Assembly (NCBI GenBank): GCA_035545995.1
Contig: DASZXH010000081.1
Coordinates: 582-64,581, forward strand
DNA: 64,000 nt
Reading direction: 5' to 3'
DNA from: Verrucomicrobiia bacterium
GTDB taxonomy: Bacteria; Verrucomicrobiota; Verrucomicrobiia; Limisphaerales; UBA11358
Of this stretch, positions 7,960-44,520 are shown piece by piece. Position 1 is the stretch's first letter. Each line of letters begins with the position of its first letter. The position numbers and the translations under genes are program-made. Below the pieces are notes generated by a model. It made no database searches. It was not told where the DNA came from and saw only the letters and a list, made by a program, of their open reading frames with translations.

Positions 7960-8111
7960 TTTGCTGCCTTTGCTAAAAAGAAATCGTCCTGCATCTTCCG
8001 GTAAAAAAATATGCTGGACAACAACCTTACGACAAGCGCAACGTTGTCTCGTAACTAAAGATAGGCCACAAAATCTAATATCTAGTAAAGGTTAGGCCAC
8101 TTGACACACTT

Positions 8112-8615
8112 ATGACATTAGACCAGTTCTGGAACATTGTTCAAAAGGTTCACCGCGATTCCGGCGGTGACATGGACAAGAAGTGCGAGCTACTCGACGC
8201 GGAGTTACGTCGCTTGTCGCTCGACGAGGTGCATTCGTTTCATAGGCACTTCGATGAGTGCAAAGATCGAGCTTACAGTTGGGAGCTTTGGGCAGCAGCA
8301 TACATCATAGGCGGCGGTTGTTCCGACGACGCTTTCTCGGATTTTCGTGCCACGCTCATTTCGATGGGCCGGCAGACATTCGAGCAGGCACTTGCCAATC
8401 CGCAGTCGCTTGCAGATATAGATTATGACGCGGAGATTGCGCACTACGAGGGCTACCAGTATGTTCCCACCACAGTTGAGACGGAACTTGGTGACGGTAA
8501 GCGTTTTCCTCGTTACCAAGCTCACCCGGCGGAGCCATCCGGCAAGTCTTGGGACGAGGACAAGGTTGCAGAGCTTTACCCGAAGTTGGCAGAAAAATAT
8601 GACTATTCAGGTTGA
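8112..8615 (+). CDS. DUF4240-family protein, cassette-like insertion
   Basis: MTLDQFWNIV...WELWAAAYIIGGGCSDDAFSDFRATLISMG...YPKL; bounded by GTTAGGCCAC (8091) and GTGGCCTAAC (8619). Confidence 0.85.
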   Translation: MTLDQFWNIVQKVHRDSGGDMDKKCELLDAELRRLSLDEVHSFHRHFDECKDRAYSWELWAAAYIIGGGCSDDAFSDFRATLISMGRQTFEQALANPQSLADIDYDAEIAHYEGYQYVPTTVETELGDGKRFPRYQAHPAEPSGKSWDEDKVAELYPKLAEKYDYSG

Positions 8616-8708
8616 GACGTGGCCTAACACCTAGATAGGCTGCAAAGTACAATAGCCTGATTCAAACTTTCTTTTCAGACGCAATCATTTTTGTTTTCCT
8701 TCGCGTGG

Positions 8709-9566
8709 ATGAATCAAACATTTCGCACACTGCTGATTCTTGGCCGCGTTTCCAATTTGCCGACAGTTTGGACAAATTGCCTCGCAGGCTGGTGGCTTTC
8801 GGGTGGCGGCAATGTTTGGAAATTGCCGCTGTTGCTTTCCGGCACGAGTTTTCTTTACGTCAGCGGCATGTTCTTGAACGACGCATTTGACGCGGAATTT
8901 GACCGGCAACGCCGCGCGTCTCGGCCAATTCCTTCGGGCGCGATTTCTTTGGACGCCGTCTGGCGGTTTGGCTGGGCTTGGATGGCATTGGGAATTTTGT
9001 GCCTGCTGTTTCTTGGAAAAATCGCGGCGGCTCTGGCCGTCGCGCTGGCGGCAAACATTCTGATTTACAATGTGACGCACAAATATATCACCGCGTCGCC
9101 GTGGTTGATGGGTTTGTGCCGTTTCTGGGTTTATGTCATCGCCGGAACGACGGGCGCGGGCGGCTTGAACGGCTGGCCGGTCTGGTGCGGCCTCGCGCTG
9201 GCATTATACATCGTCGGCTTGAGTTACGTCGCGCGCCGGGAAAGTTTTCGCGGGCCGATTCCTCATTGGCCGCTGATTTTTCTGGCCGCGCCGGTTCTCT
9301 GGGCGATGTTGATGAACACCGAGGAATATCGCATCCCGGCCATCTGGCTTTCGTTGATTTTGGTTTTATGGATTGCGTTTTGCACCCGGCAAATTTTTCA
9401 GGCCGGTGAAATCAACGTCGGCAGAATCGTTTCCGGTCTGCTGGCGGGAATTGTTTTCGTGGATTGGCTGGCGGTCGCACCGGTCAGTCCGGAGGGACTG
9501 AATTTCGCTTTTCTGATTTTATTCGGCGCGACGATTTTGCTGCAACGTTTTGTGCCGGCGACTTGA
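8709..9566 (+). CDS. eboC: UbiA-family prenyltransferase (EboC-like)
   Basis: GRVSNLPTVW, GMFLNDAFDAEFD...RPIPSG, multiple TMs, near eboE. Confidence 0.85.
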   Translation: MNQTFRTLLILGRVSNLPTVWTNCLAGWWLSGGGNVWKLPLLLSGTSFLYVSGMFLNDAFDAEFDRQRRASRPIPSGAISLDAVWRFGWAWMALGILCLLFLGKIAAALAVALAANILIYNVTHKYITASPWLMGLCRFWVYVIAGTTGAGGLNGWPVWCGLALALYIVGLSYVARRESFRGPIPHWPLIFLAAPVLWAMLMNTEEYRIPAIWLSLILVLWIAFCTRQIFQAGEINVGRIVSGLLAGIVFVDWLAVAPVSPEGLNFAFLILFGATILLQRFVPAT

Positions 9567-9569
9567 AAA

Positions 9570-11033
9570 TCATTGGTCGCCGCCGTTGTTGCCACCGCCA
9601 TTGCCTCCATTACCGCCGCCAAAACCTCCCGGCCCAAAGCCACCACCGCCCCCACGACGGCCACCGCCAAAAAGCTGCCGCATATCCACCGACTGACCGT
9701 TTTGCAATGCGTCAATCGTTGCAGAGATTGTCTGCGACATTTGCTGGTCGTTGGCGTATTGCGATTGAAGTTGATTCAGCAATTGGATGCGGCCATTGAC
9801 CATTTGCGGGTCGGTTGGACTTGCCGCCGCGAACGGTCCGAACCCACCACCGGCGAGTTGCGCCACGACAAATGTTTTCACACGCGCGTCAATGTTCGTG
9901 TTGTTCAGCGTGTCCTTGAACAACGTGTCCGCCTGTGAATTTGCGCCGACGTAATTCAAGATTTGCCGGTCAAGCGTCATTTTGTCGAATTGATTCGTAA
10001 GATTGGAGTTTTGGCTTGCCGCATAAAGCGCGGAAATCGCCTGGTCCTTCAGCACGTCCATCAGGTAATCCAGCGCGTCCTGGTCCAATCGCCCGTCCGC
10101 GCCGACCAGCATTTGTTCGGCATTGGGCGCGAAGGAGGCGTCCTGAAACATTTCCAGCACGCCGAAAAGATAACCTTCGGACAAATTGTCGAGCCGGTCG
10201 GGGTCGTCCACTGCCGGCGGGTTCAACAAAAGTTCCTTGGCGGCGGCGCAGGCGGCGTCCCGATATTTCCCCGGAGCCATTTCATCCAGCACGCGGGCGA
10301 GGTAGGCCACTTCAACGCCGCGCGCGGTGGAACTCAACATTTCCGCCAGCGCCTGCTCTGCTTCCGGCCCGCCAATTTCCTGCAACGCACCGACCAATCC
10401 CAAGCGCAGTGACGGCGGCGCGACCCAATCCGTCCGCAAATTCTGCAAATTGCGAGGACCTCTACGTCCGCCACCGAATCCACCCGCGAATCCGCCTCCA
10501 CCAAATCCGCCGAAACCGCCTTGGCCGAAACCGCCACGATTACGGCGATTGCCGCCACGACCGTTGTTGGCGTTGGTCTGGTCGTTTCCGCCGTTGGCGT
10601 TTGCCGCGACCGTCTCGGCATCATTTGTATTTTGCTCAGGCTGCACACTGTAATCTATGTCCACGTTGCGCCCGATAAATGCACGGATGGCCGGCACTGC
10701 CGCCGGGCCACGTTGCGCAAGACTTTCCAATTTGTAGACTACCATCCGCAGACTGCCGTTGTGCGCGGCGCCAGAACCCAGTTTGAGCGCCAGCAAATCG
10801 TTGATGATGTCCTCCGGTGATTCTTCAACCGGCGCGGACGATTGGGCGGCGGCGATGACGGTCGTATGCGTCACGGCGGGAGCATTGCTTTGAGCGGCTT
10901 CGAGTTGGGCTTTTTCGGCGTTCCACGCGGCTTGCGCGGCTTTCAGTTGCGCCGCTTTCTGGTTGGCAACGACAAAATAAGTCGAGGCGCAGGCGGCGGT
11001 CGCCGCCAACAGGATGATTATCAATGTTTTCAT
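9570..11033 (-). CDS. Secreted/anchored hypothetical protein with Gly/Arg-rich tracts and helical-repeat core
   Basis: MKTLIIILLAATAACAS leader; RGGFGQGGFGG tracts; SLRLGLVGALQEIGG. Confidence 0.75.
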   Translation of the reverse strand: MKTLIIILLAATAACASTYFVVANQKAAQLKAAQAAWNAEKAQLEAAQSNAPAVTHTTVIAAAQSSAPVEESPEDIINDLLALKLGSGAAHNGSLRMVVYKLESLAQRGPAAVPAIRAFIGRNVDIDYSVQPEQNTNDAETVAANANGGNDQTNANNGRGGNRRNRGGFGQGGFGGFGGGGFAGGFGGGRRGPRNLQNLRTDWVAPPSLRLGLVGALQEIGGPEAEQALAEMLSSTARGVEVAYLARVLDEMAPGKYRDAACAAAKELLLNPPAVDDPDRLDNLSEGYLFGVLEMFQDASFAPNAEQMLVGADGRLDQDALDYLMDVLKDQAISALYAASQNSNLTNQFDKMTLDRQILNYVGANSQADTLFKDTLNNTNIDARVKTFVVAQLAGGGFGPFAAASPTDPQMVNGRIQLLNQLQSQYANDQQMSQTISATIDALQNGQSVDMRQLFGGGRRGGGGGFGPGGFGGGNGGNGGGNNGGDQ

Positions 11034-11149
11034 GCGAAATCGGGCTGAACCAAAATGACGACAATTGTAAGACGTTTCGAGACCGGATACAGTTACAAAC
11101 AAGCGCGCTTGAATACCCACCTGTTTGTCGCTATGATAGTTGTTCGCTT

Positions 11150-12823
11150 ATGAGCGATATTGCAACAACCAAATTGACCCACAACGAAGAAATCAAAGCC
11201 GCCATTCCGACGCTCGCCGGCACCATTGCCGTCGCTCTGGCCAACGAAGCCGAAGACCATTTTTCGCAGGATGACTACGAATTTTTGAAGTTTCACGGCA
11301 GCTATCAGCAGGATGACCGCGACCTGCGCAAGACCGGCAAAAAATATATCATGATGGTGCGCGGGCGGATTCCCGGCGGTGTGATGACCGCGAATCAATG
11401 GCGCGTGTTCGACGATTTGTCCGCGCGTTACGGCAACAACACGCTCCGCATCACGACACGCCAGAGCATCCAGTTTCACGGCATCGCCAAAAATAATTTG
11501 CGCAATGTTATCAAAGGCATCAACGAATCGCTGCTTTCAACTTTGTCCGCCTGCGGCGACGTAAACCGGAATGTTCTCGCGCCGCCCACGCCCGCTTACA
11601 CGAAGGCGCGCGAACAGGTTTATGCCGATTGCAAAAAAATCGCGCTGGAAGTTGCGCCGAAAACCATAGCGTATCACGCCATCTGGATCGACGGTGTGCA
11701 GTTGGATTTGAACACGCCCGAAAATAAAAATTTCGTGGACCCGCTCTACGGCAAAACCTATCTGCCGCGCAAATTCAAAATCGCCTTTGCCATTCCGCCG
11801 TCGAATGACATTGACGTTTTGACGAACGACGCGGGCTTCATTGCCATCGTCGAAAACGATCAACTGGTCGGCTACAACGTCGCCGTGGGCGGCGGCATGG
11901 GACGCAGCCACGGCAATCAAGCCACGTATCCGCGCCTTGCCGACGTGCTCGGATTTCTGCCGGCGGAAAAAGTCGTGGACGTGGCGAAAGCCGTTCTCAC
12001 GATTCACCGCGATTTCGGCGACCGCACCGACCGTAAACACGCGCGGCTCAAATACGTCATCGCCGAACGCGGCGTGGATTGGGCGCGCGCGGAAATCGAG
12101 CAGCGCGCGGAAATCAAATTGCAGCCCGCGCGAGAATTCAAATTCACGACGACTAGCGATTTGCTCGGCTGGCATAAATCCGTGGATGGAAAAAATTTCT
12201 TCACGTTATTCGTCGAAACCGGCCGCGTGAAAGACGCCAAGAAAATCGCGCTGCGCGAAATCGCGGAAACACTGCCGCACCTCGAATTTCGCCTGACGAC
12301 GAATCAAAATTTGATTCTGGCGAACGTTGACCACCACGAAAAAGTCGCCGTCAACGCCATTTTGGCCAAACACGGTGTCGCGATTGAAAATCAGGCCAGC
12401 ATTTTGCACGCGGCGGCGATGGCTTGTCCCGCTCTGCCCACCTGCGGCCTCGCGCTCGCCGAAAGCGAACGCATGTTGCCCGGTCTCGTTGACCGCATCG
12501 AAAAATTGTGCGCCGAAGTCGGACTCGCCGGCGAAGAAATCATCATCCGCTCCACCGGCTGTCCGAACGGCTGCGCGCGGCCTTACGTCGCGGAAATCGC
12601 CTTCGTCGGCAAAGCACCCGGACGCTATCAAATCTGGCTCGGCGCGAACACCGCCGGCACGCGTATGAATCGCATTTGGAAAGACGTTGTGAAAGACCCG
12701 GACATCGAAAACGAATTGCGCCCGGTGCTGCTGCGCTTCGCCAAAGAACGCCATTCCGGCGAACGCTTCGGCGATTGGTGCGAGCGAATTTTTTTGAAAG
12801 AACAATCTGTTGCTACAAATTGA
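11150..12823 (+). CDS. cysI: Assimilatory sulfite reductase hemoprotein subunit
   Basis: LKFHGSYQQDDRD, TYLPRKFKI, ACPALPTCGLA and TGCPNGCAR siroheme/4Fe-4S motifs. Confidence 0.95.
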   Translation: MSDIATTKLTHNEEIKAAIPTLAGTIAVALANEAEDHFSQDDYEFLKFHGSYQQDDRDLRKTGKKYIMMVRGRIPGGVMTANQWRVFDDLSARYGNNTLRITTRQSIQFHGIAKNNLRNVIKGINESLLSTLSACGDVNRNVLAPPTPAYTKAREQVYADCKKIALEVAPKTIAYHAIWIDGVQLDLNTPENKNFVDPLYGKTYLPRKFKIAFAIPPSNDIDVLTNDAGFIAIVENDQLVGYNVAVGGGMGRSHGNQATYPRLADVLGFLPAEKVVDVAKAVLTIHRDFGDRTDRKHARLKYVIAERGVDWARAEIEQRAEIKLQPAREFKFTTTSDLLGWHKSVDGKNFFTLFVETGRVKDAKKIALREIAETLPHLEFRLTTNQNLILANVDHHEKVAVNAILAKHGVAIENQASILHAAAMACPALPTCGLALAESERMLPGLVDRIEKLCAEVGLAGEEIIIRSTGCPNGCARPYVAEIAFVGKAPGRYQIWLGANTAGTRMNRIWKDVVKDPDIENELRPVLLRFAKERHSGERFGDWCERIFLKEQSVATN

Positions 12824-12829
12824 TTTGAA

Positions 12830-13483
12830 ATGACCGCCGAACAAATTTCTAAAACGAACGCGGAATTACGTTCCAAATCGCCGCTCGAAATCGTGAAGTG
12901 GGCGATTGCTCAAGCCAAAGGCCGCGCGATTGTCTCGACGAATTTTCGTCCTTACGAAGCGGTGATTTTGCATCTGTGCGTGCAAGTCCAACCGGACATT
13001 CCGGTTTTGTGGGTTGACCACGGCTACAACCGTCCGGCGACTTACCAACACGCCGAGCAATTAAAAAAATTACTCAAGCTGAATCTCAAGCCGTATTTGC
13101 CAAAAATTTCCGCCGCGCATCGCGACGCGATTTATGGCGAAATTCCCACACCAGACGACGAGGACGGCCTGAAAAAATTCAGCGCGCTGATGAAACTCGA
13201 ACCGTTCCAGCGCGGCATGAAGGAACTCGCACCAACGGTCTGGATTACCGCGTTGCGAAAAATTCAAAACCCGAATCGCGCGGAACTGGATATTGTGAGC
13301 GAAGATAAAAATTTCGGCGCGTTGAAAGTCAGCCCGGTTTTTTATTGGGGCGATGCGGATATGGAAAATTATTTGAAGCAAAATAATTTGCCAAACGAAT
13401 GGGATTATTTTGACCCGGCCAAAGCCGATGAAAAACGCGAGTGCGGCCTGCACGCGAACTGGGGCGGAAAAGCGGTTGCATAA
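12830..13483 (+). CDS. cysH: PAPS/APS reductase
   Basis: VLWVDHGY, C-terminal KRECGLH. Confidence 0.9.
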   Translation: MTAEQISKTNAELRSKSPLEIVKWAIAQAKGRAIVSTNFRPYEAVILHLCVQVQPDIPVLWVDHGYNRPATYQHAEQLKKLLKLNLKPYLPKISAAHRDAIYGEIPTPDDEDGLKKFSALMKLEPFQRGMKELAPTVWITALRKIQNPNRAELDIVSEDKNFGALKVSPVFYWGDADMENYLKQNNLPNEWDYFDPAKADEKRECGLHANWGGKAVA

Positions 13484-13490
13484 CAGAATT

Positions 13491-13559
13491 TATCCGCAGA
13501 TGCCGCAGATTTCACAGATTTGAATTTTTATCTGCGTCCATCTGCATTAATCTGTGGAC
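13491..13559. repeat. Intergenic palindrome (CGCAGAT/ATCTGYG family)
   Basis: tccgcagatgccgcagatttcacagat...atctgcgtccatctgcattaatctgtgga. Confidence 0.8.
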
Positions 13560-13564
13560 ACAAG

Positions 13565-14467
13565 ATGAGTTCGTATCATTTGGATCATTTACAGTATTTG
13601 GAAACGGAAGCGATTCACATCATGCGTGAAGTTGCGGCGGAATTCGAGCGTCCGGCCATTTTATTTTCCGGCGGCAAGGATTCCATCTGCCTGCTGCGGC
13701 TCGCGGAAAAAGCGTTTCGCCCGTCCGACATTCCGATGCCATTGCTCAACGTGGACACCGGCCATCATTTTCCCGAATTAAATGAATTCCGCGACAAGCG
13801 CGCCAAAGAACTCGGCGCGAAATTGATTGTTCGCAAAGTTGAAGACGCCATCAAAAATGGAATCGCCGTTCCGAATCCCGGCGAAATCAGCCGCAACAAA
13901 TTGCAAATTCCAACATTGCTCGCGGCGGTTGAAGAATTTCAATTTGATTGCCTGATTGGCGGCGCGCGGCGCGACGAAGAAAAAGCGCGCGCGAAAGAAA
14001 GATTTTTTTCCTTCCGCGATTCATTCGGCCAATGGGATCCGAAAAATCAGCGGCCAGAAATCTGGAATCTTTACAACGCGCGCGTGAATCCCGGCGAACA
14101 CATGCGCGTGTTTCCGTTGAGCAATTGGACGGAGATGGACGTTTGGGAATACATCAAAAAAGAAAAGCTCGCCGTGCCGACGATTTATTTCAGCCACAAG
14201 CGTCAATGTGTCCGGCGCAACGACCAATGGCTGCCGGTCACGGATTTGCTGCCGCCCAAGCCGAAGGAAAAAGTGCAGGAACTCGTCGTGCGTGTGCGCA
14301 CGATTGGCGACATCATCAGCACCGGCATGGTGGAATCGCCGGCGGATTCGGTGGATGACATTATCGCGGAAATCGCCGCCGCGCGCGTGACCGAACGCGG
14401 CTCGCGCGCCGATGACAAGGCCAGTGAAGCGGCGATGGAGGACCGAAAAAAAGCGGGCTATTTTTAA
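13565..14467 (+). CDS. cysD: Sulfate adenylyltransferase subunit 2
   Basis: LFSGGKDS, GGARRDEEKARAKER, WDPKNQRPEIW, AMEDRKKAGYF. Confidence 0.97.
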   Translation: MSSYHLDHLQYLETEAIHIMREVAAEFERPAILFSGGKDSICLLRLAEKAFRPSDIPMPLLNVDTGHHFPELNEFRDKRAKELGAKLIVRKVEDAIKNGIAVPNPGEISRNKLQIPTLLAAVEEFQFDCLIGGARRDEEKARAKERFFSFRDSFGQWDPKNQRPEIWNLYNARVNPGEHMRVFPLSNWTEMDVWEYIKKEKLAVPTIYFSHKRQCVRRNDQWLPVTDLLPPKPKEKVQELVVRVRTIGDIISTGMVESPADSVDDIIAEIAAARVTERGSRADDKASEAAMEDRKKAGYF

Positions 14468-14511
14468 GAATGCTTTAAAACTCAAGTATCTCAGGAAAAA
14501 CTCTAAATTTC

Positions 14512-15846
14512 ATGGGCACTTGGTCACGAAATTTTCTGATTCCAAAAGCTAATCCAGCCATTGTACGGGAATGTTTTGTAAAATGGATGGAGCGAAGAGG
14601 CTTCGATTTGATGAAGCGTCCGCCACTGTTTGAGTGTACGAAGGACGAAGAACGAATCGCGTTTCTATTTTCGAATGCAGAATGGACAATCTTGATTTAC
14701 GACGAGGCGTTTCCTGAAGGCGACCGGATTTTGGCGGAGTTGGATGATTATCCAGTGTTACTTGAAGTATGGATTGGTGACAGTGATCATTGGGGTTACG
14801 CACTCTACGAAAAAGGGAAATTTTCGGCTGGTTGCACACTTAATCAAGAATACGCCGAGTCAAGTTCCAAGCCGCCAGCTACATCGGAAGATGCAGGCAA
14901 GATCTGTAAAATCCTTGGCTTCGAGGATCGTCTGGCAGACGTGAAAAGAGCACAACGCAAATGGCATCTTTTTTCTGATATTCCATGCGAGCGTTTCTGT
15001 CAAACAATCGGAGCTTTGCCTGCCGTGCTTCCCGCCAAAGACATCGAAGGCTGGAACGCCGGTAGGCTTGAGTCTTGCGAAATTGCTGGTTGGAAAATTG
15101 AACCGCTTCTTTTCGAGAAACGGAAATTGCTGGGACATGAAGGTAACGAACCGATTCTTCACGCTTTAGCCACACGGTCATTTTCACCGCGCGAATCTCG
15201 TTCGCAAGTTGATCCAGAATTCGTCAAGCAAATGCAAAGAAATGTGCAAGTAATGGTTTGGCTGCTTCGCCCGATTGGCTGGTTACTTGCCGCTCCATTT
15301 TTGATTCAAATATGGTTGCACAAACTTGGAATCAAGAAGCCAGCAAAGTTGAAGGCTGGTCAGGAAATTCTCAGCGTAATCCTTACAGCGGAACTCCCGT
15401 GGCACTGGGATGGTTCATGGCTCGTAAATAAACGACATGGTTGCCGAATACGCGCACCGAAGCCAAACGAAGACGACAAAGCTTTACTATTCGCCCATGG
15501 CGTCTTCCGGTTTTTCGTAGGCGAAATTGAGATGTCATGTTTTGCTGTACATCCGACTTCAATACGTCGAGTTTTTGATTTGCGACCAAAAGAAACAGTT
15601 CTAAAAGATGAAAGTTTTCTTGTTGGAAATTTTCCTGCGCGAATTCTTGTAAAACAAACAACAGAGAGAGACGGCGCAAACTACCACTATTTTTGGTTTG
15701 TGGAACTTCCCAGAGCCATTTATCAGTTCAGCGTTTTTCAAAAAGCAGAATTACCGCAAAGCAAAGCTGACCAAATTACAGAAGTGGTAAAATCATTTGA
15801 GGTATTCTCTGAAATCCAAAATCCGGACTCGCCTGCATTTGAATAA
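14512..15846 (+). CDS. Hypothetical protein inserted between cysD and cysN
   Basis: 444-aa ORF, one hydrophobic segment, codon style unlike the cys genes. Confidence 0.75.
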   Translation: MGTWSRNFLIPKANPAIVRECFVKWMERRGFDLMKRPPLFECTKDEERIAFLFSNAEWTILIYDEAFPEGDRILAELDDYPVLLEVWIGDSDHWGYALYEKGKFSAGCTLNQEYAESSSKPPATSEDAGKICKILGFEDRLADVKRAQRKWHLFSDIPCERFCQTIGALPAVLPAKDIEGWNAGRLESCEIAGWKIEPLLFEKRKLLGHEGNEPILHALATRSFSPRESRSQVDPEFVKQMQRNVQVMVWLLRPIGWLLAAPFLIQIWLHKLGIKKPAKLKAGQEILSVILTAELPWHWDGSWLVNKRHGCRIRAPKPNEDDKALLFAHGVFRFFVGEIEMSCFAVHPTSIRRVFDLRPKETVLKDESFLVGNFPARILVKQTTERDGANYHYFWFVELPRAIYQFSVFQKAELPQSKADQITEVVKSFEVFSEIQNPDSPAFE

Positions 15847-15918
15847 ATACATCAAATCTTCGAATCAGTTTTGGCTTGGTTGACGCTAAACAGTAATTAC
15901 AATTTGCTATTTATTGCA

Positions 15919-17238
15919 ATGCCCCATACGCAACATCCCATTGAAATTTTGCGCTTCAACACTTGCGGCAGTGTTGACGACGGCAAGTCCACGCTCATCG
16001 GCCGGTTGCTTTACGATTCCAAGTCACTGATGGAAGACCAGATTGAAGCGCTCGAACGCAGCGCGGACATCACCGGCGGCGGACAAATCAATCTGGCGAA
16101 TTTGACCGACGGCTTGCGCGCCGAACGCGAACAGGGAATTACAATTGACGTCGCGTATCGCTATTTTGCGACGCCGAAACGCAAATTTATCGTCGCCGAC
16201 ACGCCCGGTCATGTGCAATACACTCGAAACATGGTCACGGGCGCGAGCACGGCGAATCTTTCCATCGTGCTCGTGGACGCGCGGCAAGGCGTCATCGAGC
16301 AAACGCGGCGGCATATTTACATCGCGGCGCTGCTCGGCATTCCGCACCTCGTCATCGCCATCAATAAAATGGATTTGGTGGATTGGAGCGAGGAGCGATT
16401 CGAGGAAATCCGCGACGAAATTGAAGATTTTCTGCCGAAGCTGGACGTTTTCCGCGACGTGAAGTTCATTCCCATCAGCGCGCTCAACGGTGACAACGTT
16501 GTGGACGCTTCCAAACAAACGCCGTGGTATCCCGGCCCGACGTTGCTCGCGCATCTGGAAACCGTCCATATCGCGAGCGATTGGAATTTGAACACGCTGC
16601 GGTTTCCGGTGCAATGGGTGAATCGTCCGAACAATCCGACGGACAAAAAACTGCACGACTTTCGCGGCTTGAGCGGGCAAATCGCCAGCGGCATCGTGCG
16701 GCAAGGTCAGGAAGTCATCGTGCTGCCTGCTGGAATCAAAACGACCATCAAGGATATTTGGACTTACGACGGTTCGCTGGCCGAAGCGTTTTGCCCGCAA
16801 TCGGTGACGCTGTGCCTCGCGCACGACATTGACGTGAGCCGCGGCGACATGATTGTCGGTCTGGAAAATCTGCCCGGCCACAGCGCGGAATTGCACGCGC
16901 GCATTTGCTGGATGCACTCGCGTCCGTTGCAAACCGGCAAAAAGTATTTTCTCAAGCACGCCACGCAAACGGTTCAGGCCGTCGTGACGCAAATCGAAAA
17001 TCGCGTTAACATGGAGACACTTGAACCGGAACCCAACCCGACCGCGCTGGCGATGAACGACATTGGCTCAATCCGTTTGAAAATTTCCAAACCAACCGTC
17101 TTCGATGGCTACTCGACGAATCGTCTGACCGGCTCGTTCATTTTGATTGAGCAAGGCTCGAATGCAACGGTCGCCGCCGGAATGTTGTTCCCGCCGACCG
17201 AAGCCGTGAAACCGGAATATACGGATTTTGCGATTTGA
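15919..17238 (+). CDS. cysN: Sulfate adenylyltransferase subunit 1 (GTPase), no CysC fusion
   Basis: CGSVDDGKSTLIGRLL, EREQGITIDVAYRYF, ADTPGH, NKMD. Confidence 0.96.
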   Translation: MPHTQHPIEILRFNTCGSVDDGKSTLIGRLLYDSKSLMEDQIEALERSADITGGGQINLANLTDGLRAEREQGITIDVAYRYFATPKRKFIVADTPGHVQYTRNMVTGASTANLSIVLVDARQGVIEQTRRHIYIAALLGIPHLVIAINKMDLVDWSEERFEEIRDEIEDFLPKLDVFRDVKFIPISALNGDNVVDASKQTPWYPGPTLLAHLETVHIASDWNLNTLRFPVQWVNRPNNPTDKKLHDFRGLSGQIASGIVRQGQEVIVLPAGIKTTIKDIWTYDGSLAEAFCPQSVTLCLAHDIDVSRGDMIVGLENLPGHSAELHARICWMHSRPLQTGKKYFLKHATQTVQAVVTQIENRVNMETLEPEPNPTALAMNDIGSIRLKISKPTVFDGYSTNRLTGSFILIEQGSNATVAAGMLFPPTEAVKPEYTDFAI

Positions 17239-17252
17239 AGCCGAAAGTTTGA

Positions 17253-20264: not shown

Positions 20265-20513
20265 ATGAGCCGTGACGATTACCGAAAACTCATCACCATA
20301 GACCCGCAACTGAGGAATGGAGAGCCTTGTATTCACGGCTGGCCAATCAAAGTTTATGAGGTTGTCAGTGAGGTTATCGGCGGGGCGACGTGGACGCAGC
20401 TTTCGGCCAAGTATCCGCAATTGCGGCGGGAAGACATTTTGGCGTGTTTGATATTTGCCGCCGAGCAACCGAAGCCATTATTTTTATTGCGCGATGAGGA
20501 CTTGTGGCCTTAA
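20265..20513 (+). CDS. DUF433 protein (module 1)
   Basis: ITIDPQLRNGEPCIHG...YPQLRREDILACLIFAA. Confidence 0.88.
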   Translation: MSRDDYRKLITIDPQLRNGEPCIHGWPIKVYEVVSEVIGGATWTQLSAKYPQLRREDILACLIFAAEQPKPLFLLRDEDLWP

Positions 20514-20527
20514 CCCGGAACAGGCTA

Positions 20528-20827
20528 TCAAATTTCAATTTTCTTGGCAATATCAGCAGGCAACGATTTTTTCTGTTTGGGATTTTTCTTCAAAACCGTT
20601 GCTCGCGCCTGCTTGGTCACATCAGCCAAATCAACGCCAATGCCATCGGCAATTCGTAATAAAAGTTCCATCGTCGGATTGCGCCGTCCCCGCTCCACCA
20701 AACTCAACATGGATTCAGAAACTCCGGAATTTTGCGCGACCACGTAATTGGAAAGTTTCCGGCGCAAACGTTCCTCGCGCAGGCAGCGGATAATTTCGGC
20801 ACGAACAGCTTCGTAATGGCTCGGCAC
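20528..20827 (-). CDS. XRE-family HTH regulator (module 2; GTG start assumed)
   Basis: LREERLRRKLSNYVVAQNSGVSESMLSLVERGRRNPTMELLLRIADGIG. Confidence 0.85.
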   Translation of the reverse strand: MPSHYEAVRAEIIRCLREERLRRKLSNYVVAQNSGVSESMLSLVERGRRNPTMELLLRIADGIGVDLADVTKQARATVLKKNPKQKKSLPADIAKKIEI

Positions 20828-21152: not shown

Positions 21153-21281
21153 GTCAGATTTGAGAAAGTTTTGTTTATCTCGTGACCTAATACGGGAATA
21201 GGCTACAAAATTTCACGCCTTCCATATTTTCACCATTCTGAATTTGGCTAAAGAAGTGTTCTTTGCAAATAAAAATAATAA

Positions 21282-37691: not shown

Positions 37692-40430
37692 ATGCAATCA
37701 ACAAATCGCGCGCGGATGGTTCTATTTTTGTTCTTTTTTTCCGGCGCAACGGCGCTTGTCTATGAGGTTGTTTGGTCAAAACTGCTGGCTCAAATGCTTG
37801 GCAGCACCATTTACGCACAGACAGTCGTGCTGGCCGCATTCATGGGCGGGTTGGCGCTGGGAAATCGTTTATTTGGCCAGCGATCTGACCGCTGGCCGCA
37901 TCCGGTTCGGGCTTACGGTTGCCTTGAAATCATTATCGGCATCTACGCTTTTTTGTTTTTGACATTGAATCAACTGGCGGATCGAATCTTCGTCGCTGTC
38001 GGTTCGCACATTGTAGAACGTTCCGGTTTGCTTTTAATTCTTAAGGCCACGTTGAGCGCGGCCATTCTACTTGGGCCAACGATTTTGATGGGCGGCACGT
38101 TGCCGCTACTCGCTGCTTGGTTGCAAAAATCTTCTTCCGATGCCGGTCGTCGCTCGGCGCGATTTTACTCGGTGAACAGTCTTGGTGCGGTCGCAGGTGC
38201 CGCAGCGGCGGGATTTTTTCTTGTGCAAAATTTTGGCATGGCCAGAACTTTACAAATCACTGCTACAATTAATATTGTTGTCGGCATTCTTGCTATTCTC
38301 ATCAGCCAAGATGTTTCTGCACGTACAGAACAACTCGAAAGCACAACTTTAGAATCAACAACGGAAATTGTTCCACCGGAAATGCTGCGCTGGGCCGGTT
38401 TAATTGTTGCCGTGACAGGTGGTGTTTCCATGGGATTGGAAGTTTTGGCATCACGTTCATTGGCTCTGATTTTTGGTTCGTCGCTTCAATCATTTGCCGT
38501 TGTATTGATCGCTTTCATTTTGGGTATTGGATTGGGCAGCGCATGGATTGCGTCGCCAAGACGACGTAAATGGCTGGGAGAACGAATAGTCGCTTTATTG
38601 CTTTGCACAGCGGCGGCCTGGATAACATTGCTGGTTTTCAACATCGAACAATGGGTTGATTTTTATCGAGTTGCGCGCACCGGCTTAGGTCGCACGCCGG
38701 TCGGCTATGTTTATCATGAATTATTGACAGTGGGAATTGCTTTGATCGTCCTTGGCCTGCCAGCGGCATGGATTGGCGCAGTGTTGCCACTGATGATTCG
38801 TTCCATGTCGCGTGAAGGAAAACTGCTGGGTGCAAAAGTGGGAGCTTTACTGACGTGGAATACGCTGGGCGCCGTTTTGGGAACGTTGCTGACGGGTTTT
38901 GTATTGATGCCGGTTTTGGGACTGCGCAATGCCTTTGGGATGTTGGCATTAATATTGGGACTGTCGGCATTCATCATAGCATTAAAACGCCGTTGGCTTG
39001 CAGGCTTGGTAATCACACTCGGCGCTTGTGGATTTATCGGTTGTCTTCTGATTTTCGGCGGCGAAAACTGGCAATATGTTATGAGTTCAGGAATTTTCCG
39101 GGTTTGGGAAACAAAGTATGAGCCATCGTTGATGGCATTACGCAAACAACATATTAAAATTTTATTTTACAAGGATGCGCCGGATGCAACTGTATCCGTG
39201 GAAAAAACCGACGCCGTCGCTGGTCGCCCATTTATCGGATTACGAATCAATGGAAAGCCTGATGCCGGAACCGATGTTGATATTGGCAATCAATTGTTGC
39301 TGGCCCATTTGCCAATGCTGGCAAAGCCGGGTGCCAAAGATGTTTTTGTGCTTGGTCTTGCCTCAGGCATGACCGCCGGCGCATTACTGGCGTATCCCAT
39401 TAATCGTGTTGATGTGGCTGAAAATTGTGACGCTGTCATTGATGCCTCCAAAATATTTAGCGATTGGAACCATTATGTTCTTGATGATCCGCGCACACAC
39501 CTTTGGTATGAAGATGCGCGCACTGTCCTTAAACTACGCCCGCAACTTTACGACGTCATCATAACAGAACCGTCAAACCCTTGGACTATCGGTGTAGGCA
39601 GTGTATTCAGCCGTGAATTTTATCAAACTGCGGCAAGCCGGCTTAAACCAGATGGGATCGTCGCACAATGGTTTCATATTTATGAAGTAAATGACGATAT
39701 TGTGCGTCTTGTATTGCACACTTTTAATTCTGTTTTTCCTTATATTGAAATTTGGGATACAGGCGTCGGTGATATTGTTATTCTCGGTTCCAAGCAGCCT
39801 TGGCAGACGGGACCAGAAGTTTTTCAAAAAGGATTCGCCATTGATCGAGTCCGAACAGATTTACACATGATTGACATTCAATCCCCGGAAGCGTTGCTCG
39901 CCCGCCAACTGGCTTCACAACGAACTGCATTTGCCATTGCAGGCAATGGACCGATTCAAAGCGACCTTTTCCCAATCCTTGAATATGCAGCACCGCAAGC
40001 TTTCTACATTGGCTCCAATTCTCAAATGCTTGACGAATACGACGAACGCACCCGGCAACAATTGCTGGCTCCGCCCGAAAAGCGCGCGACACTTGCTGCG
40101 CTGCCCGTGGTCAACGCACAGCTTATTTTTAGTGATTTTTCAACAGTAAACGGTGAACTTTTCAGTTGCCTGTTTGGCGCAACGCCACCGGCACCTTGTG
40201 TTTTTAATATTTCTCCATCGCCGTCAGCACCGATGTCTGATGGAAGTGTTGTGGCGCAAGCGGAAAAAGCGTTTGCCGCCGGCAATCTGGCAATGGCTGA
40301 ACAAATTGTCGCATTTGCGTTAAAGCAAAGTCCAACCGACTCTCAAGCCAGCTATTTGATGCGCGTGATTGAACGCGAGAAAGAAACACGCGCTTCAAAC
40401 AGTACCAATTCGGCACTTTCGCAAAATTAA
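37692..40430 (+). CDS. Fused MFS-like membrane domain / spermidine-synthase-like SAM-binding protein
   Basis: FFFSGATALVYEVVW, LMGGTLP, YSVNSLGA; VLGLASGMT, EDAR, YDVIITEPSNPW. Confidence 0.9.
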   Translation: MQSTNRARMVLFLFFFSGATALVYEVVWSKLLAQMLGSTIYAQTVVLAAFMGGLALGNRLFGQRSDRWPHPVRAYGCLEIIIGIYAFLFLTLNQLADRIFVAVGSHIVERSGLLLILKATLSAAILLGPTILMGGTLPLLAAWLQKSSSDAGRRSARFYSVNSLGAVAGAAAAGFFLVQNFGMARTLQITATINIVVGILAILISQDVSARTEQLESTTLESTTEIVPPEMLRWAGLIVAVTGGVSMGLEVLASRSLALIFGSSLQSFAVVLIAFILGIGLGSAWIASPRRRKWLGERIVALLLCTAAAWITLLVFNIEQWVDFYRVARTGLGRTPVGYVYHELLTVGIALIVLGLPAAWIGAVLPLMIRSMSREGKLLGAKVGALLTWNTLGAVLGTLLTGFVLMPVLGLRNAFGMLALILGLSAFIIALKRRWLAGLVITLGACGFIGCLLIFGGENWQYVMSSGIFRVWETKYEPSLMALRKQHIKILFYKDAPDATVSVEKTDAVAGRPFIGLRINGKPDAGTDVDIGNQLLLAHLPMLAKPGAKDVFVLGLASGMTAGALLAYPINRVDVAENCDAVIDASKIFSDWNHYVLDDPRTHLWYEDARTVLKLRPQLYDVIITEPSNPWTIGVGSVFSREFYQTAASRLKPDGIVAQWFHIYEVNDDIVRLVLHTFNSVFPYIEIWDTGVGDIVILGSKQPWQTGPEVFQKGFAIDRVRTDLHMIDIQSPEALLARQLASQRTAFAIAGNGPIQSDLFPILEYAAPQAFYIGSNSQMLDEYDERTRQQLLAPPEKRATLAALPVVNAQLIFSDFSTVNGELFSCLFGATPPAPCVFNISPSPSAPMSDGSVVAQAEKAFAAGNLAMAEQIVAFALKQSPTDSQASYLMRVIEREKETRASNSTNSALSQN

Positions 40431-41224
40431 ACACCCGCAAAATCCCTGAACCAAAATTCAGGCTCACAGGAAAATTCGCGCAATTTGTCACGCCATTGAA
40501 TTTTGATGGCTTGGGCATGAAGCGCATGGTTTTCTAAAATCAAGCCGGCGCGTTGTTCGGCGGTCAGACGGTTTTCGACCAACGCCAGATAGCAATCCTC
40601 GTCGCCACCATAAAGTTTATCTCCGACAATCGGGTGGCCAATGTGCGCGAGGTGGATGCGGATTTGATGTTTGCGTCCAGTTCGCGGAAAAATGCGAAGC
40701 AGGGAAAATTTCTCCTCACCCGACCTATCGGCCACCCTCTTCTCGCTGAGCGGGGTGAGGGGCGCAACAAATTTTTTTTCGACAAAAAATTTAGTTTGCG
40801 CCGGTGTGCCATCGGCACAAACGCAATCTTTCACGGCCACTTTGCTTCGCTCGTCTTTACCCAACGGCGCATCAATCATCCCCTGCTCCGCCGCAACATG
40901 ACCGTGAACGATGGCAAGGTATTCTTTTTCAACGGCGCGGTTTTCGAGGATTTTTCCCAGTTCGCCGGCGATCTCAGAATTTTTGGCAATCAAAACAACT
41001 CCACTGGTCTCGCGATCAAGACGATTAACAAGGCGCGGAAAAACCACCTCACCCTGGCCCTCTCCCCCGCCAGCGGCGGAGAGGGAAAATTGCAAATACA
41101 GTCGCGCGCGACCAATCAAGCTGGACATCTCGCCGTTTTTGGTGGGATGGCAGACCAATCCGGCGGGTTTGTTGGCGACGAGCAATTCATCGTCTTCGTA
41201 AATGATGTCGAACAGTTTTTCCAC
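40427..41224 (-). CDS. RluA-family pseudouridine synthase with two in-frame palindromic inserts
   Basis: NKPAGLVCHP, NRLDRETSG, TGRKHQIRIHL, GHPIVGDKLY, ALHA. Confidence 0.93.
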   Translation of the reverse strand: MEKLFDIIYEDDELLVANKPAGLVCHPTKNGEMSSLIGRARLYLQFSLSAAGGGEGQGEVVFPRLVNRLDRETSGVVLIAKNSEIAGELGKILENRAVEKEYLAIVHGHVAAEQGMIDAPLGKDERSKVAVKDCVCADGTPAQTKFFVEKKFVAPLTPLSEKRVADRSGEEKFSLLRIFPRTGRKHQIRIHLAHIGHPIVGDKLYGGDEDCYLALVENRLTAEQRAGLILENHALHAQAIKIQWRDKLREFSCEPEFWFRDFAGV

Positions 41225-41263
41225 AGCTTGTTTTTATCCAACGCGAGCGTATTATGAGCGCGA

Positions 41264-41908
41264 ATGAAAGAAAAATGGAATCGCTGGCTGCCGTTGATTT
41301 TTGTGGCGCTGTTTGCCGTATCGCGAATTCCGGGATTGTGGCCGTTGAATTTCAGCGCCGTGTATGCGTTCGCATTTTGTGCCGGCGTTTTTTTTCCAAA
41401 ACGACAGGCATGGTATTTGCCGCTGGCCACCATCATCATCACCGACATTGGGCTGAATTTTTATTATCAATGGAAAGGCTACACGGTTTGGGATGCGCCG
41501 GATTTGGCAAATCTGATCTTTAATTATGTCGCTTACGCCGCGTTGATTTTTCTCGGTCGCTGCTTCAAACCGCAATCCTCTTTTCCGGCTTTGCTTGGCG
41601 GTGGATTGCTCGGCGCCATTCTCTTTTACCTCATCACGAACACGGCGTCGTGGTTCTTTAACCCATTTCATAATGCTGAATATACGAAAACTTTTTCCGG
41701 CTGGCTGCTGGCGCTGACGAAAGGCATCAACGGGTGGCCGACCACTTTGGAATTTTTCCGCAATACGCTGTTGAGCAGCGGGTTGTTCACGGCGTTGTTC
41801 GCCGGCGCGGCCAAATGCGGTCTTTCTGAATCGCCGGCAGAAAAAAATGCCGGCGTGCGCGAGCCGGAAAGCGAAGTGGAAGAAAAGCCTGAAGAAGCGA
41901 GCGCATGA
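41264..41908 (+). CDS. DUF6580-like membrane protein (putative transporter substrate-binding component)
   Basis: SRIP...NFSAVYAFAF, ILFYLITN, FFRNTL; 5-6 TMs. Confidence 0.7.
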   Translation: MKEKWNRWLPLIFVALFAVSRIPGLWPLNFSAVYAFAFCAGVFFPKRQAWYLPLATIIITDIGLNFYYQWKGYTVWDAPDLANLIFNYVAYAALIFLGRCFKPQSSFPALLGGGLLGAILFYLITNTASWFFNPFHNAEYTKTFSGWLLALTKGINGWPTTLEFFRNTLLSSGLFTALFAGAAKCGLSESPAEKNAGVREPESEVEEKPEEASA

Positions 41909-42366
41909 AAATCGGCGTTATCTCCGACACGCACGGCTTTCTCGATCATAAAATCTTCAAACTGTTTGAAGGTGTCGGACACATTTTGCACGCGGGCGAC
42001 ATCGGCTATGCCTCCATCATTTTGGAACTCGAAGCCATCGCGCCGGTCACGGCTGTGCGCGGCAACACCGATATGGATTTGCCCTTTCGGGAAACGGAAA
42101 CGATTGAATTGGCCGCAAAAAAATTTCTCGTTCATCACATCGTCAATCCCCGCGCGCCGGACGACAAAATCAAAAACCACATGGCGCGCGAGCGGCCAAA
42201 CGCAATTATTTTCGGCCACACGCACAAATGTTTTTGCGAAACCATCGGTGGAATTTTATTTTTCAATCCCGGTTACGCAGGCAAACCGAAAGCCGGCGTC
42301 GAACGCAGCGCGGCGATTTTGCATGGCGATGAAAAAGAATTACACGCGGAATTTTTGAAATTGTGA
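41905..42366 (+). CDS. YfcE-family metallophosphoesterase
   Basis: ISDTHG, HAGD, VRGNTD, FGHTH, NPG. Confidence 0.92.
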   Translation: MKIGVISDTHGFLDHKIFKLFEGVGHILHAGDIGYASIILELEAIAPVTAVRGNTDMDLPFRETETIELAAKKFLVHHIVNPRAPDDKIKNHMARERPNAIIFGHTHKCFCETIGGILFFNPGYAGKPKAGVERSAAILHGDEKELHAEFLKL

Positions 42367-42417
42367 CGGCGATTGAATTTACTTTTGTTGCGCCTGCGGA
42401 TTTGCTAAAAAATCGCC

Positions 42418-43347
42418 GTGAATAAAATCTTTTGCGCCATTTGTGGCTTGTGGTTTTGCAGTCTGCTGGTCGCTGCGGGAGCGGATTCCTATTCGCTGAC
42501 CGACGGCTCGTCCTTGACCGGCGATACCGTGACGTTCAACGACAACGGCATCACCCTCCGCCTGACGAATGACTCCTATACCAACGTCATGTGGACGAAA
42601 TTTTCGCAGGATGCATTGCGGCAGCTCTCCCAAAACCCGAAAATCAAGCCGCTCGTGGAGCCATTCGTGGAAATCCCTGAATCCGAACGCCCGAAAAAGC
42701 CGGAAATCAAAGTTCACGACGTGACGCGATTGGAATTGCCAGCCAAACAATCGTTGATTGGCGCATTGTTCTCATCGTCGGTCGGACTGTTCGCGTTGTT
42801 TCTGATTTACGCGGCGAACATTTATTCGGGTTACGAAATCGCCATCGCCCGTGCGCGGCCAAAAGCGTTGGTGATGGGCGCAGCAGTGATTCTGCCGATT
42901 CTGGGGCCGATTATTTTTCTCTCCATGCCGGTTTATGTGAAACCAACTCCGGTGGAAGAACAAGTGCCCGCCGAAGAACAAACTTTTGCCATGCCCGGAC
43001 AACCTGCGCCACAAGCGGAAGCCGCCGCCGCCATTTCTCTTTCCGAAACAGCGCGACGAAAAGCGTCACTGCCCGAATCGCAGATTTTCCAGCGCGGCCA
43101 ATTCACCTTCAACCGCCGGTTTTTCGAGACGAAATTTTCCAATTATTTCGGCACGACGCGGCGCGAAGCCGACCGCGACATGGTGCTCACGGTGAAAACG
43201 ACGCGTGGACAATTCGTCGTCCAACGCATCTCGCGCATCGCCGCCAACGACGTGCATCTCGAAACCATTCAAGGCGCGGCGCGGCAGGAAATCATGGTGC
43301 CGTTCGCCGACATTCAGGAAATCCAACTCAAGCATAAAGACGCGTGA
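42418..43347 (+). CDS. Hypothetical membrane protein
   Basis: Signal peptide plus 2 TMs; stop overlaps the next start. Confidence 0.75.
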   Translation: MNKIFCAICGLWFCSLLVAAGADSYSLTDGSSLTGDTVTFNDNGITLRLTNDSYTNVMWTKFSQDALRQLSQNPKIKPLVEPFVEIPESERPKKPEIKVHDVTRLELPAKQSLIGALFSSSVGLFALFLIYAANIYSGYEIAIARARPKALVMGAAVILPILGPIIFLSMPVYVKPTPVEEQVPAEEQTFAMPGQPAPQAEAAAAISLSETARRKASLPESQIFQRGQFTFNRRFFETKFSNYFGTTRREADRDMVLTVKTTRGQFVVQRISRIAANDVHLETIQGAARQEIMVPFADIQEIQLKHKDA

Positions 43348-43925
43348 AATATAAAACGATTTTGATGTTCGGCGCGCCCGGTTCGGGCAAGGGCACGCAC
43401 GGAAAAATTCTCGGTGCCATTCCCGGATTTTTCCATTGCAGTTGCGGCGACGTTTTTCGCAGCTTGAGTCCTGATTCGCCGCTCGGAAAAACGTTCGTCG
43501 AATACTCCAGCCGCGGCTCGCTCGTGCCCGACGAACCGACCATCGAACTCTGGAAAAATTACATGCACGGCCTCACCGCCGCCGGGCGGCTCGACCCGAA
43601 ACGCAACGTCCTCGTGCTCGATGGCATCCCGCGCAACGTGCGCCAGGCGCAAATGCTCAAAGAACTTCTCAACGTCACCGCGGTGTTTTACATGTGCAGC
43701 GCGAATTTTGAAAATCTCGTCAAACGCCTGCAACGACGCGCGCTCAAGGACAATCGCCTCGACGACGCCAATCTGGATGTGATTCGCGCGCGCCTGAAAA
43801 CTTACGAGAAAGAAACCAAACCCGTGCTGAATTTCTACGGCAAGAAAATCGTCCACAAAATCAACACCGACGGCACGCCGCCGGAAACCTTCTTCAAAGT
43901 TTTGCGTCAGGTCGTCAAACTCTGA
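43344..43925 (+). CDS. adk: Adenylate kinase family (short LID)
   Basis: GAPGSGKGT, SCGDVFR, LVPD, LDGIPRN, NRLDD. Confidence 0.85.
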   Translation: MKYKTILMFGAPGSGKGTHGKILGAIPGFFHCSCGDVFRSLSPDSPLGKTFVEYSSRGSLVPDEPTIELWKNYMHGLTAAGRLDPKRNVLVLDGIPRNVRQAQMLKELLNVTAVFYMCSANFENLVKRLQRRALKDNRLDDANLDVIRARLKTYEKETKPVLNFYGKKIVHKINTDGTPPETFFKVLRQVVKL

Positions 43926-43994
43926 AAAGATTTTTTACGCGAAGATTGCAAAGTAGATTCGCAGCCTATCTCCGTATTAGGCTTTGCACAGCAA

Positions 43995-44351
43995 TTAGGC
44001 CACAGCCGGCTGATCAATTACCCAACGCCATGAACCGTCTGGTTGCCGGCGAGCTACCTCTGCTGTGATTGTGCCATTGGGGAGGCGTGTCGAAGTAAGA
44101 GCGAGCTCACCACTCAACATCGCGGGGCGCTGTTCTCCAACATTGAACCGCACACCAGTCGCGAGAAATTTGGTGTAGAAGGTGCGAATTTGGTCTGCGC
44201 CCTTTGCGACGGTCATGTCGCTGGCTGCGAGCACGGCATCAGGCTCATAGAGCTCGACCATACCATCGACATCACCGACATTGGCCCTTGCGACAAGCAG
44301 TCTGGCCAACTCTTGCGGGTCATCAGCACGTTCTCGTCTCTTGGTATTCAT
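43995..44351 (-). CDS. SnoaL/NTF2-like (DUF4440/YybH) protein, cassette-like insertion
   Basis: GDVDGMVELYEPDAVL...EVARRQPDGSWRWVID; flanked by 25-bp palindromic sites. Confidence 0.88.
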   Translation of the reverse strand: MNTKRRERADDPQELARLLVARANVGDVDGMVELYEPDAVLAASDMTVAKGADQIRTFYTKFLATGVRFNVGEQRPAMLSGELALTSTRLPNGTITAEVARRQPDGSWRWVIDQPAVA

Positions 44352-44520
44352 AGTCTTCTCGTCAGCAGCCTAACCTTTAGATTAGCTGCGCGGTCTGCAG
44401 TCTAACACTTTTCATAAGATTAACTTTGCGCTTGGTAAAAAGTTTGTCCAGAAAAATTCATGTTGGAAATTTTCTGTGTTTCATCTGTGTTCCATCTGTG
44501 GCTAAAATCCTGAAACAGAA

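Follow-up and report, generated by a model that had tools for sequence, protein, structure and literature searches.

Integron platforms with a conserved terminal site, dispersed as single-gene slots in a lineage of Verrucomicrobiia

Known systems and the stretch analysed

Integrons are described as having a single site of entry and an array to which cassettes are added at the front, and recombination at the R'' box of a cassette is regarded as a rare error that inserts genes backwards. In pdif modules, the targets of XerC/XerD, single genes lie between two inverted tyrosine-recombinase simple sites; dif itself has an 11-6-11 geometry. The present analysis concerns a stretch of 64,000 nt, called the window, from a Verrucomicrobiia bacterium of the order Limisphaerales (GenBank assembly GCA_035545995.1, contig DASZXH010000081.1, positions 582 to 64,581), in which a 25-bp quasi-palindrome recurs at the edges of accessory genes. 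The original prediction saw in this repeat the mark of a dispersed cassette system. The swapping of single genes in operon gaps is borne out, but the system is not a new, free-standing one: it consists of reduced integrons. These belong to a variant of the integron that is real and spans a lineage of soil Verrucomicrobia; its conserved terminal site is undescribed, and its dispersed form, for the most part without an integrase, holds single genes in what are here called slots. As in pdif modules, the gene of a slot lies between two inverted sites: attI, beside a predicted promoter, and a second site, named A, at the far end.

Two slots in the window

The window is contig C81 of a 2.9-Mb draft genome (G000). 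Its closest relative, a sister species (G019), is ~89% identical over the window; G000 and the relatives with A sites are draft metagenome bins, and loci from relatives bear L-numbered labels. The five 25-mers and four partial copies first reported are all found in the window, but not as a single kind of site. Those at 8619 and 43961 are the second site A, in which a platform arm, Y-N5-GATAGGCTGCAAA, is joined to the R'' box of a cassette. The 25-mer at 44365-44389 is an attI core (L-R), and the copies at 8060, 8091 and 44397 are attI boxes. Since hidden Markov models (HMMs) of attI match these orphan elements, all four are assigned by sequence to orphan integron platforms, made of a putative promoter and attI, with intI deleted. 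The identity of the parts can be stated with considerable assurance.

The slot between eboE and eboC lies on the plus strand. Its left edge (7960..7972), a remnant of the first codons of a deleted intI that was encoded on the minus strand, abuts the eboE stop codon. A predicted Pc-like promoter follows (8015..8044, -35 TGGACA at 8015-8020, degenerate -10 ~18 nt on); a consensus scan of that stretch of the window raised no flag. The orphan attI (8060..8097) comprises a DR1-like GATAGGC (8060-8066), a degenerate L box and the R box GTTAGGC (8091-8097), with the crossover at 8091|8092. It scores 43.7 bits (E 4e-11 genome-wide) with an HMM of slot attI sites, and weakly (E 1.9) with an HMM derived from intI-adjacent DNA only. 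The cassette body (8092..8627) runs from R' to R'', which form a perfect 10-bp terminal inverted repeat, and holds an open reading frame (ORF) at 8112-8615 for a DUF4240 protein of 167 aa. The terminal site A (8619..8646) consists of the cassette R'' (to 8627), followed by platform sequence C-ACCTA-GATAGGC-TGCAAA; the crossover is placed, provisionally, at 8627|8628.

The slot between fmt and adk has the same parts on the minus strand. A Pc-like promoter is predicted at 44429..44450 (-35 TGGACA at 44450-44445). The attI (44368..44406), with a DR1-like box at 44406-44400, L at 44386-44380 and R at 44374-44368, spans the two repeats first noticed at 44365-44389 and 44397-44406 and scores 39.2 bits with the slot model (E 1e-9). 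The cassette body (43977..44373) holds a SnoaL-like ORF (43995-44351, 118 aa), with a second R''-like box over the stop codon (44000-43994). Its site A (43961..43985) is of the T allele, with a putative crossover at 43977|43976.

Distribution of site A

A half-site matrix built from the five predicted 25-mers was used at a threshold score of at least 18. With a 5-nt spacer it returned 14 hits genome-wide (5 training sites and 9 new), against 0-4 at each of 15 other spacers, and direct and everted half-site arrangements gave 0-3 hits per spacer. All 14 hits lie outside confidently called genes, against 15% of random positions. The integron-type simple-site geometry proposed earlier is upheld, and the sites are real and non-random. 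The repeat had not been noticed beside housekeeping genes, but sites sit in gaps between adk, fmt, rpsG, hemC, glnA, ubiE and galK. The motif is directional, arm one being GCCTAAY and arm two GATAGGC followed by TGCAAA.

Within the genus, 77 of 151 genomes contain the exact A pattern, with 153 matches in all, and one contains the reversed control pattern. In the rest of the phylum the exact pattern was found in 1 of 400 genomes (controls, 2), only two of the 400 belonging to the same order; a looser pattern occurs in 3 of 16 same-order genomes of other families. At the 153 exact sites, which lie in many unrelated loci, the arm and the exact 5-nt spacing are kept while the spacer drifts. A scan of GTDB supplied 100 A matches, of which 80 listed loci were used; 64 of the 80 records are titled Verrucomicrobiota, several of them Limisphaerales. 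Records titled Bifidobacteriaceae or Methylomirabilota (L099, L107, L125, L127, L142, L157) hold full slots and may be mislabelled; in several of them the flanking genes match verrucomicrobial loci.

As predicted, A is not an attC. In the two window cases that were folded, A forms no attC hairpin with the DNA that follows it; no L'-R' lies downstream, and nothing beyond AAA is conserved in the 80 loci. A was also considered as half of a long attC, but no L'-R' partner was found downstream or in folds. The attC family of the genus differs from A in L boxes and spacers. Host genes adjoin A on the far side in the 80 loci listed, with no transposase or intron body. At many A sites half of a short palindromic intergenic repeat of a ttcgcg type lies 3' of the arm (e.g. 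contigs C53 and C86 of G000, L138, L146 and L164), and slots may sit inside pairs of such repeats. A phage source of the integrase was rejected, as the single exact A site in IMG/VR has no intI or attI hit nearby. One viral contig end (L358:5750-6030) carries an A site and a cassette-like gene between phage structural genes and a host gapA-like gene.

Architecture of the slots

Upstream sequence of 1 kb or more was available for 76 A loci; in 46 of these an attI on the same strand is matched no more than 2 kb upstream, and in one the match lies downstream. Pairing of attI with A, after three hits lacking a clear GTTRRRY were dropped, gave a set of 44 slots. The element 5' of each small gene has a -35/-10 pattern and GATAGGC 31-32 nt before GTTAGGC, with a degenerate box between; the DR1-like box lies 31-32 nt ahead of the crossover in 42 of the 44. 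This DR1-L-R order is the layout of attI1, as given in PMC12901181. An HMM built from DNA beside the intI genes of relatives found four orphan attI sites in G000 (E 2e-7 to 0.015), and the refined HMM, from the 44 slots of other genomes, found 12 at E<=0.002, both window elements included; nine of the 12 face an A-type site within 1.3 kb. In total G000 carries about a dozen platforms in chromosomal gaps and no detected intI.

A -35 hexamer of the form T[GCT]GACA is present in 33 of the 44 slots, in 31 of these at 75-77 nt before the crossover, and 17 nt after it comes a hexamer whose second base is A and whose sixth is T in 32 of the 33. These promoters are Pc-like and would presumably act as such. 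Of 56 platforms, 22 have a left-edge motif at a distance of 131-145 nt from the crossover (controls, 1 of 43); it occupies the position that encodes the IntI N-terminus in intI-linked loci, and directly follows a host stop codon in nine cases. Internally deleted intI genes remain at the ebo locus of G019, as a longer remnant, and at L133. Slots would thus be integrons that lost intI down to its first codons. At G000:C90:8566-8623 an intI 5' remnant is fused to the end of a host gene and is followed by an attI of the type of another IntI clade.

At the other end, R' and R'' are complementary at positions 8-10 in 119 of 132 comparisons over the 44 slots (5000 shuffles: mean 65.6, maximum 84), which indicates that the cargo genes have each retained the two ends of an ordinary cassette. 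Almost without exception, slots with a single gene end exactly at R''. For the terminal gene of L163 and L175, a 66% identical homologue is an ordinary attC cassette. Intermediates also exist: one or two ordinary attC sites precede the last gene in 5 of the 44 slots and on contig C22 of G000, and A terminates four intI-bearing integrons (L088, L095, L096, L156). From these two kinds of locus it follows that A is the distal end of an array, of which the single-gene slot is the smallest form. The next gene is convergent at 42 of 72 A loci.

The longest ORF is in sense in 47 of 52 slots (the 44 and eight of G000) and mostly fills the slot. An inversion switch of cargo between attI and A was rejected on this count, as none of the five exceptions offers a sense ORF of full length. 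In one cassette of 130 bp, an antisense ORF covers 80% of the length. Slots on contigs C86 and C87 of G000 hold 80% identical cassettes for a 70-aa membrane protein, which suggests either a move from slot to slot or one pool used twice. The L120 slot, in the ubiE-MBL gap, is oriented opposite to three other alleles, and its promoter side is cut short.

Cargo turnover between sister species

Seventeen loci were compared between G000 and G019. Five of them (ebo, fmt-adk, MBL-ubiE, prepilin peptidase, hemC-glnA) have attI and A in both species; in each of the five the terminal genes are different, and similarity breaks at GTT and at AA|Y. In G019 the ebo slot holds an unrelated 84-aa gene between the same two junctions, and the fmt-adk slot an unrelated 148-aa gene. 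Three loci have a platform only in G019; five have one only in G000, G019 having there a different small gene with no sites. G019 has attI, gene and full attC at two loci and a truncated attC at one. At galK both species have A, with different left flanks. Cargo is common to the two at none of the 17 loci.

Short gaps with no sites are found at 13 of the 30 closest ebo loci and at 13 of 18 fmt loci examined, where only G000 and G019 have the slot. Between rpsG and fusA the site occurs in none of 17 other genomes fetched, in many of which gene order differs. No target-site duplication was found at the slot edges.

Position of the junction

Of the 80 A sites, 44 have C and 36 have T directly after GCCTAA, but in real attC sites the base there is always C (107 of 107). 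Between G000 and G019 this base is the same at all five shared slots, and base and 5-nt spacer together at three of the five; three alleles of the trpF locus share Y-N5 and have different cassettes. In 38 pairs of alleles from one locus that carry different cassettes, 3.3 of the six bases agree on average, against 2.6 between loci, whereas the three bases left of GCCTAA agree no better within than between loci. The base and spacer are thus bound to the locus and the bases to their left are not, which implies that the platform owns Y-N5-GATAGGCTGCAAA and the cassette everything up to AA. Half of the 25-mer, namely GCCTAA and what lies to its left, is thus part of the cassette and is exchanged together with it. 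On the other strand A would read as an L box, 5 nt and R|TT, an attI-like simple site pointing back at attI. Its crossover would fall at the A/C position, AA|C, where IntI1 is reported to cleave (PMC4792948).

The arm and spacer of A resemble the DR1 region of the attI of their own slot in direct orientation. For the five bases before the arm, 96 matches to those before DR1 were counted in 42 slots, against 78.5 +/- 5.8 in shuffled pairs. The N5 is unlike the L-R spacer of slot attI sites and unlike attC spacers.

The integrase

The original prediction reported no intact integrase nearby, and no intI exceeds the family cut-off (TIGR02249) anywhere in G000 or in G019, only 5' remnants being present. 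A search for intI elsewhere in G000 found seven tyrosine recombinases, three of them XerC/XerD-like, and none passes the IntI cut-off. One, a second XerD-like gene (G000:C70:10112-11080), has Q in place of the first H of HxxR.

In the genus, intI passes the cut-off in 72 of 151 genomes, often several times per genome. A tree of 58 IntI rows (quick method, no bootstrap) places the IntI of the four A-terminated integrons in one clade of 10 (SH-aLRT 98), which differs at 11 diagnostic columns, mostly in the N-terminal domain. With the slot model, attI sites of this clade score 39-69 bits, those of other rows at most 26. In the DNA around the other 48 rows no A was seen, many of these ending at contig edges. 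Among the six clade members that lack A, three are at contig ends, and in three, transposase or recombinase genes break up the array. Where a genome encodes an IntI of 65% or higher identity to that of L096, an exact A is present in 10 of 11 cases, against 67 of 140 other genomes (Fisher p 0.009, overstated since kin are not independent). The L096-clade protein is a normal IntI with an I2 region, its best PDB match being VchIntIA (2A3V, E 1e-74). The tyrosine recombinase that was postulated is thus likely a bona fide IntI of one clade in relatives; it would probably act in trans, as also postulated. A second site 3' of intI, which could excise a whole integron, was not seen in the arrays examined.

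Proposed exchange at the far end and alternative explanations

The reading preferred here, with a probability of roughly 0.58, is that A is an inverted, attI-like far-end site, at which IntI, probably acting in trans, joins the R'' of a cassette to the platform. A new cassette would enter at attI by the normal bottom-strand reaction. Its R'' would then recombine with A at AA|Y, via a top-strand hairpin or a double-stranded R''-L'' half-site, and this would delete the rest of the attC and everything distal, the old terminal gene included. The outcome would be a one-in, one-out replacement that leaves the gene beside the promoter with no attC of its own; lacking an attC, the retained gene cannot be removed by ordinary attC x attC excision. 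By the reverse reaction, cassettes would be appended distally in sense orientation. While an R''-side reaction at attI inserts genes backwards (PMC4792948), the inversion of A would keep them in sense. The layout, attI homology, junction positions, cargo turnover and clade link are observed, and to these the reading would add one step by IntI. That exchange by IntI at A is active is favoured to a similar degree. It is about an even bet that a verrucomicrobial IntI clade runs two-ended integrons, in which A makes an otherwise wasteful R''-side reaction productive, and that the dozen or so slots form a distributed integron, served in trans and invisible to attC surveys.

Several points weigh against this reading. 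Top-strand attC recombination by IntI1 is reported to be 1,000-10,000 times rarer than bottom-strand recombination (PMC5027507), and the attC folds here have their unpaired bases in the usual arrangement or are ambiguous. The same junction would arise if slippage between two GCCTAA boxes caused a deletion. Across genomes, same-locus agreement of base and spacer is only moderate. At two G019 loci a full attC is joined at G|TT to sequence that matches the right arm of a degenerate A of G000, and a full attC is joined to the arm of A in 4 of 151 genomes, once at G|AT (L392); of these four cases, L395 precedes another cassette and may be an ordinary junction, and one of the two G019 loci is among the four. 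Such junctions imply that the arm also serves as a direct R box and are read as a route of loss, since they remove the spacer. In three metagenome runs of one study (contigs only), no excision or inversion joint was found at the two window slots; one contig of a related strain has a joint at 43933-44483, the sequence between its ends being unread. Four clade members were in the set from which the attI HMM that scored the clade was ultimately derived. Finally, 67 of the 77 genomes with A have no detected clade IntI, and G000 and G019 have no intI at all. Other IntI clades, unassembled genes or homologous exchange of finished alleles could fill this gap.

It is unlikely, if conceivable, that A is instead a passive terminus, the arm being the right half of an empty attI or a copy of DR1 that was joined once to R''. 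Cargo would then change by insertion at attI plus RecA-independent slippage, or by homologous exchange of whole alleles, with no cutting at AA|Y. The identical slippage junction and the rarity of top-strand recombination (PMC5027507) fit this account, as does the fact that, at two loci of G019 and in 4 of the 151 genomes, the arm aligns with a terminal R box that follows a full attC; the likeness of the bases before the arm to those before DR1 is what a one-time duplication would give. Conservation of arm and 5-nt spacing while the spacer drifts argues against slippage and points to probable selection for binding by a protein. Had slippage acted on 6-9 bp, many other junctions would be expected too, whereas single-gene slots nearly all end at R''; the five loci at which G019, with no platform, still holds a gene indicate that decay does occur and looks different.

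Inverted exchange at A also competes with a direct mode, in which A works as in delta-attI, with R'' as L box, GATAGGC as R, crossover at G|AT and a cassette-borne spacer. The attC joined at G|AT in L392 is of this form, delta-attI cassettes arise at R'' and are excised by IntI1 (PMC12901181), and IntI1 accepts GWT cores (10.1101/2022.09.11.507474). Y-N5, however, stays with the locus while the gene changes (three of five G000/G019 slots and three trpF alleles), N5 is unlike the spacers of attI L-R or attC, and, among the arrays read, no internal cassette was seen that ends in R''-N5-GTT, which leaves the direct mode doubtful.

Less probable again is that a slot, from left edge to A arm, acts as a small mobile unit, non-autonomous and with its ends inverted, which IntI or a recombinase such as XerCD moves or inverts whole, as happens with pdif modules. 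Many slots share a sharp left edge that is similar to the A arm in reverse complement and, in nine cases, directly adjoins a host stop codon; the ubiE-MBL allele of L120 is reversed, G000 has a second XerD-like gene, and empty alleles are common. The left-edge motif is, however, intI coding sequence too, and at ebo a longer piece of intI survives in G019; neither a target duplication nor a clean empty junction turned up, and the central region is of 7 bp as in attI, not the 6 bp of dif. Such a unit would explain dispersal but not cargo exchange, and could coexist with exchange at A by IntI. A transcription-factor operator or chance match, which the intergenic position of a quasi-palindrome might suggest, can be set aside as highly improbable, since the sites lie at cargo 3' ends (next gene convergent in 42 of 72 loci), one arm is cassette-borne and changes with the cassette, and the reversed pattern occurs in 1 of 151 genomes against 77.

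Further sites and variable gaps in the window

The remaining sites first reported are less complete, and two of them, at 20504 and 3773, are degenerate or truncated with no attI partner in the window. Between rpsG and fusA, where no attI was found, lie two sites on the plus strand that are probably also A-type. The site at 21182..21210 (score 35) lies 30 nt after a DUF433 gene with no attI hit nearby; the site and ~90 bp around it are absent from G019, although the DUF433 gene is kept there, and it is probably an eroded slot. The degenerate site at 20504..20528 (score 24) overlaps the stop codon of a second DUF433 gene, and this DUF433 block is absent from G019. G019 thus keeps one DUF433 gene and neither A-like site, and both sites look like eroded slots. 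A candidate truncated site at 3773..3797 on the minus strand, below the scan threshold, keeps R'' and spacer and has lost the arm. It lies in a decayed island (3208-4665) with a helicase-like fragment, an excisionase-like ORF, an integrase C-terminal fragment and a rarA 3' fragment, as labelled from their translations.

Variable genes also occur where no site does. In the gap between the rarA 3' end and the 5-FTHF cyclo-ligase gene (4667-5153; L012 in G019) the small gene differs between the species, with no attI or A, and similar site-less variable genes lie in five other gaps of G019; a second, unmarked route of single-gene turnover may exist. A gene for a four-helix bundle of the 23S rRNA-IVP family (46529-46963), amid phosphate-transport genes, is absent in G019, where the flanks join almost directly. 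In the cysD-cysN gap (14463-15919) a 444-aa ORF with no Pfam match is replaced in G019 by a shorter, unrelated stretch. PADLOC, run on five window proteins, gave no hit for the cargo genes and only generic helix-turn-helix hits; Rfam found nothing in the window beyond one tRNA.

Comparison with known systems

The slots are nearest to sedentary chromosomal integrons (intI, Pc, attI of DR1-L-R layout, attC), with which they share the platform, the GTT crossover, the attC cassette pool and the IntI I2 region. They differ in being many per genome, at unrelated loci and mostly with no intI; their arrays end in a conserved R''-joined site and not in the last attC, and mostly hold one gene and no attC. 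Compared with pdif modules, they have integron R boxes, a 7-bp core and two unlike sites, half of each from the cassette. IS1111/IS110 elements and group II introns also sever attC just after R'', and such insertions are present in these arrays. At A, however, no transposase or intron follows, T is common after AA, and varied genes meet the site. Insertions like IS110/IS1111 were seen in attC of the genus just after R'' or L'', with the same left ends recurring (L083, L319, L342, L337, L343).

The delta-attI cassettes of class 1 and 2 integrons are alike in that attC is replaced at R'' by attI-related sequence, which yields a double-stranded simple site (PMC12901181). In the description given there, they have an L-R core, are direct, end at G|TT, are cassette-borne and occur sporadically, whereas A is DR1-like, locus-bound, terminal only and conserved in the genus. 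The same source credits the origin of delta-attI from R'' x attI L box to Partridge et al. (2000). In a full-text literature search, mostly outside subscription papers, no account came to light of an inverted, conserved site at the end of arrays or of attI slots in dispersed form. If the exchange proposed here occurs, the R''-side reaction is used on purpose, and the conserved second site fixes a cassette at its R'' end, in sense orientation, in a natural exchange device that leaves no attC.

Dispersal off intI has its own precedent. Clusters of attC sites, or single ones, lacking an integron integrase (CALIN/SALIN) and attG (PMC4889954; 10.1101/2022.09.11.507474) are, like the slots, cassettes off intI, scattered and presumed to be served in trans. 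As defined in these sources, CALIN/SALIN are recognized by attC and lack attI and Pc; most slots have attI and a predicted promoter but no attC. An attC with no intI is found in only 5 of the 44 slots and on C22, and in neither window slot. To judge from the method in PMC4889954, an attC-based search would miss most slots. If the proposed reading is true, one integron is spread over many promoter-equipped slots, and attC-based counts of integron cargo miss this class.

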